64,000 nt of DNA from assembly GCF_041248615.1 (NCBI RefSeq), contig NZ_CP158425.1, one strand, 5' to 3'. The DNA comes from Escherichia coli. Its GTDB lineage: Bacteria; Pseudomonadota; Gammaproteobacteria; Enterobacterales; Enterobacteriaceae. Position numbers: made by a program. This document shows, in pieces, positions 45,001 through 51,000 of the stretch (positions are counted from its first letter, which is position 1; every line of letters starts with the position of its first letter).

Positions 45001-48000
45001 TCTGGAACTCAATGAGCTTTTGCTCACACTCCTCCCTGCCCCACGATCCCTGCCAGTCACAGATGTCCCGGTACTTACTTTCCAGCTTATCCATCTGTGC
45101 GAGATTAGCTGTTGCGAAGTCTGTCCATATGTCATGCCAGCAAGCGTTGTACGTAACGCCAGCTGGTGGACAATACTCCATTGCATCAGCATTAATAATT
45201 TCAACGCGAAGATCGGTTGCAAACGAGGCTGCAACGAGGTTAATAACATCCTGTTCTTTTTCGATTACCGTGACATGGGTTACATCGTCTTTCTGAAGAA
45301 TGGCGTGGAGCACCATACCAAGACCAAGACCATTAATGAGCACCCGCCCGGTGGCTCGCTCTATAAAATCCTGGCAGGTTCGGATCTCCATCGGGGTATT
45401 GGACATCACCACATCCCAGCCGTTGGACAAGCGGCGATATCTACCGGGCGGGATAAACTCATCTGTATTACCAGTACACTCGGCACGAAGGGCGAGGGTC
45501 AGCGCCTTATCTGTGGTAATTTCGAAAGTGTCCAGTTTCCAAGTTCCGGACTTGCCGTCTTTAACGGGTAAATCAGAAAAGCAGCTCTTCATCGAGGCAA
45601 CCAAAATTCCAGTAGTTTTGTTACGCTGAACCTACCACAAACCCGCTCTTAATGAAGGCATCAGGAGCGATAGCGATCTTTGAGGCATCGTTTAAAACAG
45701 CGGCATCCTGTAACAGACACCCGATATTTTTTTTAATGCCGCAGGTGTTAAAGGTAGCGTTGCAAAGTTGCAACATCTTCAGGGGCAACCTCCACGCAGC
45801 TCCTGACACTGTAGTGATTTTCGCCGTTGTAGTCATAAACCCCACCGTCTTCAAAACTCAGCTGTTCAACCTCGCCAGCACACTCGGAAATCAGTGCCGT
45901 CTGGCAAGCATTTTTCTCACAATCGCTGACGAGTATACGAACATAGCTTTTCTCATGGTCGCCGTTACGGTTCTGGATCTTTACGATAAAGTGTTTTTCA
46001 GACATTTGTGCCTCCAGCTCAGGTTGAGGTTAATTTAGCGTTGCCCCGGTTCACCGGGGCAAGAATAAATCAACCCTTAATGAAATTGTGCCCCCAGGTG
46101 TTAGGCTTAAATGCCTGCTCTTTGATATATGTTTTCATTACCTTGCAGGTTTTTTTCAGGGCTTTGGTATTGGCATCGGTTACTGGGATAAAATGGCGAG
46201 AATGACGGTTTTCCCGGTACTGCTTATCAGCGTTTGGGTCAATTGCTTCGCTTTGCAGGAGCCCTTCGTGCCTGCCAATTACTATTACGTAGTTCATTTC
46301 ACCTGAAACACGATCCGTGAGTAATTGAAGGGAAATATCAGCTGCTCGCGTGGCCTGGCTTGCAGATATTTTTGCATGCAAGAAAGCCCCCTTTCTGAAT
46401 TTGGCCGGAGTTAGCCCTGTAATATCCTCAACACTAAAATTAAGTGAGGAAAGAATTGAAAATAAGTCGCAGCTAATGACTTCAGTATTATTAGGCATTT
46501 TACCCGTCCCCGTCCATATTCATGATACGGTAATGATACCAGGTCGATATCATTACCTAATAACTTGGTGAAAGAAAATCTGTAATTTTTAGTTAACTAA
46601 AATTAATAGTCTCAATACTGCTCAAGAATTCTTTTTTTACGTCCGGTGTAAAAGGTATACGTTCAATGTATTTATAAAGTGTCGCAAATGTTTTGGGTTC
46701 AATGTTTCGGGAGATAATGTCATCAATCGGATCTTCGAACATATTGATAAAGATATCGACATGCTGCTCTCCGCTTTCTGATGCCTTTGAAAGAAGACTG
46801 ACCACTTCAATGTAGCGATTATCCTGCTCTGCAATGAACAACCAGTGCCCTTCGTTAAAGGCGGGTGCAGCGCTGTAGCGTTTAACAACAATTTCTGAAA
46901 GATTATATCCTGCCTGATTCAGCAGATTATTAAAGTTGAGTTGAGTTGAAATCACGTCTAACGTTTTCATAAAACCTCCTTTTCATCTGTACTTATTATA
47001 CTGTTACCCAACCCCCAGCTAATAACCTCCCAGCAAATTTTCAGAAAAAAAACACCGCCTTTTATTTAAGATTGAACACATCCTTTTTAAATACCAACAA
47101 TGATTATGAAACCACAATGTAAGTGAAGCGCCATTATGGAAAAGTAACTTTTGTGCAGCTCATAAATTTTATTTATTAGTTACGTTCCTTTGTCTTGTGG
47201 TCGAAGTTCATCAGGCGAGGCCTAAGAAGAATATGTGTGGTTTCAGCCAATGCGGTGATCGGGCATTATAATTTGGTCGGGCTATTATACGTGGGTAAAG
47301 GTAGTGGTAGGGAGAGGATCAGGTTAAATTGCATTTTCCCGGTTGCCTTCCCTGGCCTACCGGTTTCAGGTCAGACGCTAAGACCAGCGGTAATACTTAA
47401 AGTAGTCCTCATTTACAGCCAAAAACTCCCTTAAACCGTTCATTAATCCCTTTTCAAACGCTGTAACGATAAACCGGTATCCGTCCAGTGTTTCAATGTA
47501 GTAGATCCCGCCCGGTGTTATTCCAACATGCAACACCTCGGCTGTCATCATAAACTGGCCTTCCGGAAAATCATGCGACAGGTATATAAAACCCGTCGTG
47601 GCCGGTGCGGGTGTGGCATTCACTAAGACACCGTTAAACTGCTGCCCGTGCCTCGCCGGTACAAGCTCACTTCCCCTGGTTGACTTATCGAGCAGCCCCT
47701 TAACATCTTTTTGCTCTTTAGATGAGGTATAGCCCCGCACATCACTCCCATCACCTGGGCGAGAGCCGGTGCCGACATGTGCAAGACGACGGTAAGCGCT
47801 GCGCATATTGATGTGGCAGGATGCCCCGGCTCTACCCTGAAGCCTTACGCCAAAATCTTCGCAAAGTAATAAAATCTGACGTAGCTGGTGTTCATACACG
47901 GACGCAGAAAGTGAAAGGTTGAAACTGGAAAAGGTCAGTTCTAAAACCTTTTCCCGTTTGTCATTGAAATGTGCTTCCAGCCTGATGATTGGCTTTTCCG

Positions 48001-51000
48001 ACATTGCAAAAGCTTTGTCCGTTGCTCTGTACCGGCATTCATCTCCGAAACATTCTTCAACAACGCTGGCTATAACCGTGTCGTGATCGCCATCTTCCGG
48101 AGCTGGCACAAAGATTTCAAATTGTGCCGGTGTCTCCGGCTCCAGCAGAACGGGATATAAACGCGGAGAATTAAGCAATGCGCATTCAGAATTAATGAGC
48201 TTAACCCAGGCGCTTTTGTCGTCCGGATCCTTAAGCTGCTGTCCAAGGTTATCGCAAAAGTCTACTATCTGACGGGTATGCTCATCCGTGACTGCACAGA
48301 TCAGGTTAAGACCATGCGTGGCCATACTCAATTCCCGGGTTCGGGACTGGGAATTGATCGACCAGGGGTTAAGTGAAAGCGAAATAGGGCTTATGGAAGG
48401 GACGACCGTCTCATTCTGCAAATCTGTAAGCTGGCAGTTCGCAGTAGGCTTCGGGGAAAGGGTACTAAATATGTAACTTGCCTGTTGTTTAGTACTGGCC
48501 TGGATATAAAACATCGCGTCCATGCTTGTATCCCGGGATGAAATTGAAAATAGCTTCATTTTTAACCTTAATGGATGAGCGATTTATAGTCATGTGCTGA
48601 CAAATGGACATTATGTGCGCCATCATTCCATTCAAAGAATAATCGATACTTAGAGTTTACTCGAATGGAGGAATAACGGTTTGACGTCATTCTTAAGCGT
48701 TCATAACGCAAGCTGTTGGATAATAACTCCCGCTCACTCTGGACATTATCCAGCGTTTCGAGTCGACACAGAATCGCGTTAATAATTTCAGAAGGAATAC
48801 CTGCCGTTGTTTTTCCATTACGGAAGAACTTTTCAAGCCGTCTGTCTTTAAATGAATGGATCATAGTTCCTCCGTAATAATTGACCTTAAAATTAAATTA
48901 AAAGGGCTTTGAATTAATGAATCCCTAAAATGCGGGCGGCGACTGCCAGCTGCTTATCACTTAACTGACGCTGGTGGGTTAAAGAAGACTTAAGGCTTTC
49001 CAGAAAATTATTACTGCTGGATTGCTGGGTGATTGCATCAACCATTTTTTGATGAGATCTGCACCATGCATTGAACGCAGAGTTGTGGGCGTTTTCAGTC
49101 CTCAAACGCTCGTTTTGCAAGGATGCTGACACTTTGCGGGCAGCTTGAGCATTAATGCGGTACAGCGCATTCAGCGTGTAAGAAGTGCGGGTCGTTTCGA
49201 GGCTGTAACCCGTGGCTTTACAAGCCATACAGCGACTTCTATAAAAATGCTTACGCTCTCCCCGACCATTGCATTTATCGCAAAGAATACGAAAAGTATA
49301 TTCCGCAGTACCTTTTACAGAATCAACACAGCGGATTTTTGCGCTGGAGATTTCAATTCCACTGCGATCATAATATTTGGTCATAATGTGATTCCTCCGG
49401 TTAGTTCTGGAGTAATCATGACAGAATGAATCTACTGGCTAATAACCTGAGAGTAAATATTTTAAAAAAACATTGAGAGAGGGTCTGCAAATTTATACAC
49501 GAAGGATTCAAATATAATTTTGTTTAAAAAATTAAGAGCATTCTGAAGTAAAAGTGCATCAAAAAGCATTCATGGATAAATCATGTACTGGTGCCAGCCA
49601 TTTAAACGCGGGCATTGTTCCGGAGTGATTAAACGGTTTAGCATCATAGATTAAAACCAAAAGGAAGGCGTCCTTCCCGTCTCGGGAATATTACTTTCCC
49701 GTTTGCAATTTAAGAGCCACTTAATGAGAAAGTAATAATTAAGTCATGCTCAACTCTACATATTACATTGAGGATGGCGTAACAGGGTACGGCATACTAC
49801 CGCACCCTTCTGAAGAGCTTATGTTTGAGGGAATTCTATAGCAAATGTGGCCGTGCCAGATTGACCACTTACAGCGGGAGTAACGGGATACGTGCGCTCT
49901 TCACCATTACCAAGATCCAGTGACAGCGATTTAGTTTCACCAGGCTGGACCGTAACTCCGGCAACCGTAACGCCGAACTGGGCATTTTTCTGAACAGTCA
50001 GGGTTCCGTTTAACTGTCCGGTAATGATAGAACCGTCCTGACGCCGCAACACACTGGTTCGGATGATGGCCAGCGGCGTGTTGTCCGTTGCTTTCAGTGC
50101 TACGGCTGTGGCCAGCGTCTTGAGATTATCCAGCATAATCAGATTCGCAGGCTGGTAGGTAAAATTAAGCGTTTTAGTGGTCCGGTTACCTGATTCGTCA
50201 ATAGCCAGTGCCTCCAGATGATACATCTGTCCCGATTCGTCAGTGTTGGGGAAGATTCTGGGGTATTCCGGAATAAAGACATCCTTGGATAACGGCGTGA
50301 ATGCCAGGGTGACCTTTTCAGAGTTAGGTCCACCAGCGAGCTGAAGCGATGTCAGGGAAGCATCCCCAGAGGCATCAGTAACGCTTATGCGAAGGTTCTC
50401 AAGCCCTTTAACCAGTTTTCCTTCTGCGTCTGCGCCATTAAAACTGAACGCGATAACCGGAAGCGTTGAGTCAATTTTCAGCGGTGCATTAAGCGTTTTG
50501 GTTCCGGTGTTTCCAACAAGATCCGTGGCAGAGACGCTAACCACCGTATAATCCCCGTCCGGTAGACCAGCGTATGAGAAGGTGGCGTTTTTGGTTTTAT
50601 AATCGCTTTCACTGACGGTCACAGGCTTCAGCGTGAAAGGTTCCCCCCGGGCATTTTTAAGGGTGGCTTCGAAAACTTTGGTATCCCAGTAGCTGATGTT
50701 CCAGGCGTTGACGCGATCATTATCGGTGGCCGTCATAGTGATTGTCTTGGAGGCCTTGTTTACCTGAGCGACATTAACCACCGGTGGGTTGTTATCCCAG
50801 ATAACCGTAAAATTACCAGCAAGCGCATCGAATATGCTGTCACCATCTTTTCCCGAGTAAAGGTGCAGATACTCAAATCCTTTGTCACTGGTGTAGTTGA
50901 AGTTAACCGTCATCTCGCATGAACTTTGTCCGATAGGTATAGTGCAGAACCAGGCTGCATTTTTTACCGTTCTGAACTTTTGCACGTATGGTCGGGGTTC

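Follow-up and report, generated by a model that had tools for sequence, protein, structure and literature searches.

In the HigBA modules of the plasmids Rts1 (Proteus vulgaris), pGDZJ004 (IncP) and pR17.0776_84k, the toxin gene comes first and encodes a protein of the family PF05015, and the second gene specifies HigA, an antitoxin of ~100 amino acids (aa) of the XRE-type helix-turn-helix (HTH) class. Tripartite toxin-antitoxin systems are also known, such as the HigB1-HigA1-SecB-like chaperone system of Mycobacterium tuberculosis (TAC), paaR2-paaA2-parE2 and omega-epsilon-zeta. The present analysis concerns a locus on the minus strand of a 64,000-nucleotide (nt) stretch of Escherichia coli DNA (contig NZ_CP158425.1, assembly GCF_041248615.1; this whole stretch is referred to as the window), in which a gene for a 98-aa HigB-like protein is preceded by one for a 156-aa zinc-ribbon protein (ZnF) and followed by one for a protein of 393 aa (Big). 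The family and order of the toxin gene are those of HigBA, but the second gene differs: in place of HigA it encodes an acidic, multi-domain, non-HTH protein. The chances appear to be about even that HigB and Big constitute a type II-style toxin-antitoxin module of two genes, in which a novel, non-HTH antitoxin replaces HigA.

With the tripartite systems the locus shares a toxin of the RelE/HigB superfamily, a three-gene operon and a third member that is chaperone-like or regulator-like (here with a DnaJ-type zinc ribbon). It differs from them in that the third gene is separable from the other two in related plasmids and is not SecB-like, and in that the candidate antitoxin has no recognisable DNA-binding or chaperone-addiction segment. 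The plasmids concerned are of practical interest, IncHI1 and IncHI2 being important vehicles for multidrug resistance in Salmonella, E. coli and Enterobacter; the HigB-Big module occurs in ~1,300 of the 72,556 plasmids of PLSDB. A search of the literature found no functional study of the module. Several plasmid papers label the locus of IncHI2 plasmids simply 'HigB/HigA', and another describes the HigB gene as flanked by hypothetical proteins (PMC8466100).

An IncHI2 locus encoding a HigB-type protein

The segment 47000-49600 of the window matched 1097 PLSDB records at the DNA level and was 100% identical to many IncHI2/IncHI2A, MOBH, MPF_F conjugative plasmids, the hosts being E. coli, Salmonella, Enterobacter and Klebsiella. 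The window was therefore taken to be IncHI2 backbone. One of the matching plasmids, the 233-kb pM160133_p1 (NZ_CP022165), bears mcr-1 and served as a sibling for reading the wider region, which showed that the window also contains the transfer genes mobI-mobH-traD and a long run of small minus-strand genes. The three open reading frames (ORFs) of 156, 98 and 393 aa were present on the minus strand at the positions given in the preliminary description of this DNA.

The higB-like gene (48568..48864, minus strand) specifies a basic protein (isoelectric point, pI, ~9.7; 9.6-10.3 across lineages), a candidate ribosome-dependent mRNA endonuclease toxin. Residues 4-88 matched the Pfam family HigB-like_toxin (PF05015, i-Evalue 6.2e-18), and the protein also matched PHROG 3066 (phrog_3066, 'toxin of TA system', 8.9e-18) and the solved structures of P. 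vulgaris HigB (4mct, 7.5e-6; PDB HigB chains, 7.5e-6 to 4e-4). These profile and sequence matches place it in the HigB branch (PF05015) of the RelE/ParE superfamily, in agreement with the type first assigned to it. The active-site residues of P. vulgaris HigB are H54, R73, D90, Y91 and H92 (PMC5027501); these align with E55, R74, D92, Y93 and K94 of the 98-aa protein, so that three positions (R74, D92 and Y93) are kept, H54 is replaced by Glu and H92 by Lys. When the alignment was made with plasmid HigBs that have a HigA partner, E55, R68, R74, H91 and Y93 were all kept, corresponding to the Glu of the Y-E-R-L motif, the Arg of SIRV, the Arg of Y-R-L and the C-terminal His-x-Tyr; the Glu in Y-E-R-L and the C-terminal His-x-Tyr are thus found in the HigA-partnered toxins as well as in the IncHI clade. 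Since the IncHI clade matches HigA-partnered HigBs in these features, nuclease activity of the IncHI protein is plausible. Overall, it is just 28-38% identical to the canonical HigBs and has a C-terminal KSLIH extension, and its C-terminal half (SIRVNSKYRLFF...HNVHLSAHDYKSLIH) is almost invariant across the IncHI clade.

The gene in the position of higA encodes a conserved protein of no recognised family

Next to the canonical plasmid HigBs, at 35-38% identity to the one studied here, a HigA gene lies in the slot that Big occupies in the window; in pGDZJ004 it starts 8 nt past the HigB stop codon, exactly as Big does. The Big gene (47378..48559, minus strand), a candidate non-HTH antitoxin gene, encodes an acidic protein (pI ~5.5; 5.2-5.9 in all lineages except one). 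No match to Big was found in Pfam, NCBIfam, PADLOC, PHROG or the PDB sequences, and the Pfam, NCBIfam, PHROG and PDB-sequence searches revealed neither an HTH nor a HigA domain in it. The secondary structure predicted by AlphaFold2 (AF2) consisted of beta-beta-alpha repeats and a barrel. The absence of an HTH antitoxin immediately downstream of the toxin gene, pointed out in the preliminary description, was therefore borne out, the slot of the canonical HigA being filled by a gene without a family match. A short HTH antitoxin ORF hidden between the genes was ruled out, the gaps being only 8 nt and 49 nt; nor was an overlapping one found, the alternative-frame ORFs of at least 40 aa, whose conservation and HTH content were left unchecked, being all of 40-94 aa and inside the three genes.

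Fourteen Big homologs at 30-63% identity aligned across the whole length from residue 1, with M1, K2, Y18, A21 and Q26 invariant. The comparison indicates that Big is a real gene read from its first ATG and that the 393-aa start is correct. The RefSeq/PGAP starts differ between records (L001, L017, L018 and L037): placed at M79 and M13 they give proteins of 315 and 381 aa, respectively, and elsewhere the full 393 aa is annotated. With full-length conservation down to 30% identity, neither the shorter PGAP starts nor the PGAP name, 'flavin reductase', is supported; an FMN-binding split-barrel found no backing in profile or fold, and the sole likeness to a flavin reductase is the small beta-barrel in the C-terminal domain of Big. 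The misleading product name and the inconsistent start sites in RefSeq are thereby corrected.

The full-length family is small. Only two clusters at 50% identity were found among 1.84 billion representatives, and 100,044 species genomes yielded only five loci, each enterobacterial and IncHI-like. The Big family is thus restricted to IncHI-type plasmids.

HigB and Big are closely coupled across IncHI lineages

At the HigB-Big junction (48560..48567, minus strand; sequence at the HigB stop and Big start, taaGGttaaaaATG) the ATG of Big lies 8 nt past the HigB stop codon, not 9 bp as first reported, and the Shine-Dalgarno sequence of Big overlaps the higB stop (taaGG), making the junction a candidate site of translational coupling. 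The distance was 8-15 nt in nine lineages and was conserved down to 30% Big identity, so the view of the 393-aa gene as a tightly coupled partner of HigB held. When PLSDB was searched by tblastn, HigB and ZnF (both at ≥60% identity, i.e. at least 60%) were found in 1300 and 1298 records, and Big in 1304, while queries with the N-terminal 205 aa and the C-terminal 104 aa of Big gave 1303 and 1296; these counts were made separately for each query, and co-residence was read directly in ~18 loci. The order ZnF, HigB, Big was seen in every lineage read, including IncHI2, a 95%-identity IncHI2 variant, IncHI1A, IncHI1B, and several lineages of metagenomic or genomic origin, with Big falling to 47-52%, or even 30%, identity. 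The block holds together while its neighbours rearrange; a gene for an Ig-like protein, for example, precedes it in the window but follows it in L014. The two proteins evolve at different rates. The identities to ZnF, HigB and Big of the window were, respectively, 65, 90 and 63% in IncHI1A, and 60/85/52, 60/85/49, 55/83/47 and 33/60/30% in further lineages, i.e. HigB changes slowly (60-90% identity) and Big fast (30-63%). Their charges are opposed, HigB being basic at pI ~10 and Big acidic at ~5.4.

The ZnF gene (48914..49384, minus strand) is the first of the apparent operon and specifies a 'YuiA-family'-like protein of pI 9.8. It has a single DnaJ-type CXXCXGXG zinc ribbon followed by a helical C-terminal half, and matched Pfam DnaJ_CXXCXGXG (PF00684) weakly (1.1e-3) and phrog_4046 at 1e-12. 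The zinc ribbon initially proposed is therefore there, but 'Cys-rich' was an overstatement for a protein with six Cys in total. It is separated from higB by 49 nt in the window and by 40-63 nt across IncHI lineages. Full-length homologs of ZnF at ~30% identity ('YuiA family') were found in ~540 Klebsiella IncHI1B/IncFIB-type plasmids, where they stand between a ParB-like gene and an Ig-like gene with neither HigB nor Big adjacent; these plasmids have their own HigB-like gene elsewhere (42-44% identity). The idea that the 392-aa gene preceding the ZnF homolog in Klebsiella is a diverged Big was rejected: it is ParB-like, and the hhalign probability was 0.2%. Co-occurrence of the trio was thus confirmed as a constant order within the IncHI lineages read, but not beyond them, and since ZnF is separable in Klebsiella plasmids, the conserved functional unit is taken to be the HigB-Big pair rather than the three genes. 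ZnF could be a regulator, co-oriented with the pair but separable from it.

The nearest relative of the toxin outside the IncHI clade is the HigB-like protein of Klebsiella MOBH plasmids of the pNDM-MAR/IncHI1B-IncFIB type, which forms a sister clade at 42-44% identity (L035, 2501-3142; L036, 2501-3141). As in the window, the gene stands upstream of an N6/N4 DNA methyltransferase gene in the same backbone neighbourhood, and its partner, which matches nothing in Pfam or NCBIfam, lies tightly downstream (6-11 nt 3' of it). The Klebsiella gene is a second one of HigB type that lacks a recognisable HigA. It differs in that the partner is small (105-107 aa), with no detectable relation to Big, and in that a divergent yfaE, not a zinc-ribbon gene, lies upstream. 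The possibility that the three ORFs 3' of the Klebsiella gene are a split Big was rejected, no relation being detectable.

Big has a duplicated N-terminal module and a C-terminal barrel

The AF2 model of Big, built on a 14-sequence alignment, was of moderate quality (predicted local distance difference test score, pLDDT, 68), with pLDDT values of 70-90 in the N-terminal module. This module (aa 1-262; 47774..48559, minus strand) contains four beta-beta-alpha units, arranged as a duplicated pair of subdomains, and is the proposed toxin-neutralising part. When sub-alignments were compared with hhalign, residues 72-128 matched residues 200-262 with a probability of 94.8% (E 5e-8), and residues 1-58 matched residues 129-188 weakly (E 1e-3); by this profile evidence the internal duplication is genuine. 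No homologs of the N-terminal module were found outside the Big family.

The C-terminal beta-barrel and helix (aa 297-393; 47381..47671, minus strand) form the most conserved part of Big. Profile searches with residues ~297-393 retrieved standalone homologs of 105-145 aa (L008, 3989-4411; L009, 2531-2950; P0031-P0056), encoded on mobile elements within arrays of small genes; their matches were phrog_8840, phrog_11960 and phrog_2063, PHROGs with no assigned function. Modelled with these homologs aligned, the domain reached a pLDDT of 94.2 as a helix-capped small beta-barrel, whose neighbours in AFDB were uncharacterised proteins about 110 aa long, most of them encoded by Pseudomonas and Stutzerimonas. 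The genes adjoining the standalone homologs had no HigB or PHROG match and included no recognisable toxin, so a role of these homologs as toxin partners was ruled out.

Three independent natural truncations of Big were found next to an intact higB. Big is interrupted in a Salmonella IncHI2 plasmid by IS21 (codon ~250-258) and in a Klebsiella IncHI2 plasmid by IS1 (codon ~351-353), and a chromosomal copy in Enterobacter hormaechei keeps only residues 1-211. All three therefore retain residues 1-211 or more, the barrel being dispensable in them, which fits the idea that the N-terminal part of Big is what must stay when the toxin is present. An internal Big fragment, bounded by two IS26 copies in a plasmid absent from the listed HigB hits, was uninformative.

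A candidate RNA hairpin over the higB start

A candidate hairpin was detected at 48817..48878 (minus strand), in which the region of the higB Shine-Dalgarno sequence and start codon (48878-48865) pairs with codons 12-16 (48830-48817). Its arms are a 14-nt inverted repeat with 93% complementarity, folding gave a minimum free energy of -19.8 kcal/mol (z = -3.46), and the same fold was predicted in six of seven lineages. In a ten-sequence alignment, 85.7% of the hairpin cells were paired, compared with 47-59% in slid controls, and compensatory changes were seen at three pairs. The structure is a candidate device that would keep translation of the toxin below that of the downstream gene. A scan of 46900-49900 against Rfam returned no meaningful RNA family, and an RNA antitoxin or a known RNA element at the locus was discarded accordingly.

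A putative toxin-antitoxin module and its alternatives

In the mechanism proposed here, the HigB-like protein would act as a ribosome-dependent mRNA endonuclease, and the hairpin that buries the higB ribosome-binding site would restrain its translation, while Big would be translated from the Shine-Dalgarno sequence overlapping the higB stop codon. The acidic Big would bind the basic HigB and neutralise it through the IncHI-specific duplicated N-terminal module; the C-terminal barrel would be accessory (regulatory, sensing or a degradation tag), neutralisation being independent of it. ZnF would be transcribed together with the pair yet be independent of it, perhaps as a regulator that binds nucleic acids. 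Toxicity, neutralisation, the domain that neutralises and the biological role (plasmid addiction or defence) are all what we infer from sequence. The preliminary description had left open whether the locus held a new type of antitoxin or a toxin domain recruited into another system; the anatomy of the locus favours the former.

Several points weigh against Big being an antitoxin of HigB. Physical contact between the two proteins is presumed. Big has no similarity to known antitoxins and is four times their usual size. Position 55 of the toxin is a Lys in the most divergent lineage (L002), and the HigB-like proteins of the Klebsiella sister clade end in AHAHA and have lost the Asp-Tyr motif, which makes loss of nuclease activity in the wider group conceivable. 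All the loci belong to one syntenic plasmid backbone, so the conserved adjacency of the two genes is in part inherited, not selected independently. Three truncations are few, the probability that all would fall after codon 211 at random being ~0.1, and their pattern would fit a harmless HigB equally well. The core bases of the hairpin are already constrained by the Shine-Dalgarno sequence and by codons, so the hairpin is treated as a candidate device.

Alternatively, the HigB-like protein would not arrest growth, and the pair would be subunits of a different plasmid function, for instance regulation of transfer or establishment by targeting RNA, or an effector plus a sensor with Big as the main actor. 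This explanation is unlikely, though it is the strongest competitor. Big, a large protein of several domains, resembles no antitoxin, and conservation within it is highest in the barrel rather than in the presumed neutralising region; the barrel family consists of standalone mobile-element proteins with no adjacent toxins, the locus sits among small genes of a single orientation, together with an orphan methyltransferase and hok/sok, and the loss of the Asp-Tyr motif in the Klebsiella sister clade points the same way. Against it stand the family-typical catalytic residues of HigB and the near invariance of its C-terminal half in the IncHI clade; the pairing of a basic with an acidic protein, the position of Big in the HigA slot and the restrained translation of the toxin all fit the logic of a toxin-antitoxin pair, and none of the three proteins matched the defence models of PADLOC-DB v2 (zero families at E up to 1), by which a known anti-phage defence system was ruled out. 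More doubtful still is a three-component system in which the basic ZnF would be the antitoxin, or a dedicated transcriptional regulator or chaperone, and all three genes would be required. The constant gene order in IncHI lineages, with gaps of 40-63 and 8-15 nt, and the nearly equal numbers of ZnF and HigB records speak for it, as do the strongly basic character and DnaJ-type ribbon of ZnF; a separate regulator would also make sense since Big lacks a DNA-binding domain. But the full-length ZnF homologs of the ~540 Klebsiella plasmids have no adjacent HigB or Big, the Klebsiella HigB-like gene has the divergent yfaE upstream instead of ZnF, a basic toxin would hardly be neutralised directly by another basic protein, and ZnF has no similarity to SecB-type chaperones.

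That HigB is an orphan neutralised in trans by a HigA encoded elsewhere, on the plasmid or the chromosome, with Big an unrelated neighbour, is very improbable. Enterobacterial chromosomes do carry higBA loci, and the 'HigB/HigA' label that several papers give to IncHI2 plasmids would agree with such an arrangement. Yet no HigA is annotated on the sibling pM160133_p1, where HipA and its HTH partner HipB are the only type II toxin-antitoxin pair besides HigB and no HTH other than HipB is annotated; the PLSDB gene tables are incomplete, and to that extent a trans-acting HigA is conceivable, which counts against the proposal for Big. The plasmids reside in many genera, which argues against dependence on a host antitoxin, the HigB gene was noted as flanked by hypothetical proteins (PMC8466100), HigB is just ~35% identical to HigA-partnered toxins, and its 8-15-nt coupling to Big is kept down to 30% identity. 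A bolder version of the antitoxin proposal, as improbable as the three-component system, would make Big the founding member of a new class of sensor-antitoxins. HigB-Big, present on more than 1,300 sequenced multidrug-resistance plasmids, would then be no simple addiction cassette but a plasmid system for abortive infection or exclusion; the duplicated module would cage HigB, and the barrel, whose family is otherwise seen as small standalone proteins in accessory-gene arrays of phages and plasmids, would sense a cue from an invading element or from transfer and free the toxin.

If Big is indeed an antitoxin, it would represent a new antitoxin family without a DNA-binding domain and would give a functional context, for the first time, to an uncharacterised beta-barrel domain that is widespread in mobile elements. 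In addition, a determinant of maintenance or defence would have been identified in plasmids of clinical importance.

Neighbouring features

Upstream of the block, the window carries a gene for an 805-aa Ig-like protein (49819-52236, minus strand; DUF4165/Big_3 domains are seen in orthologs), one of several such genes on IncHI2 and distinct from that of the 1434-aa RSP transfer protein. A terminator-like hairpin at 49662..49678 (minus strand), 3' of this gene, marks the 5' boundary of the transcription unit of the block. Downstream lies an orphan N6/N4 DNA methyltransferase gene (43565-44815, minus strand; 416 aa, with an Mrr_N-like N-terminus in orthologs), which keeps its synteny with the HigB block in almost every IncHI lineage examined. 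It stands in a long same-strand array of small genes of no assigned function, which resembles an establishment or anti-restriction region.

Other toxin-antitoxin pairs were seen a few kb downstream of the HigB block in different IncHI lineages: a TacA/GNAT acetyltransferase pair (L006, 6295-7046; L013, 6901-7658) and an Xre-MbcA/RES pair (L034, 4503-5404), with a lone annotated RES-family gene in L010 (7235-7621). The region downstream of the block thus appears to accumulate toxin-antitoxin cassettes. Elsewhere in the window, a second post-segregational killing system, the type I toxin-antitoxin system hok/sok, was recognised by its sok antisense RNA at 28398-28556 (minus strand; Rfam RF01794, 81 bits), and an ALIL pseudoknot, by which an IS3-family insertion sequence achieves frameshifting, lies at 32533-32649 (plus strand; Rfam RF01497, 120 bits).

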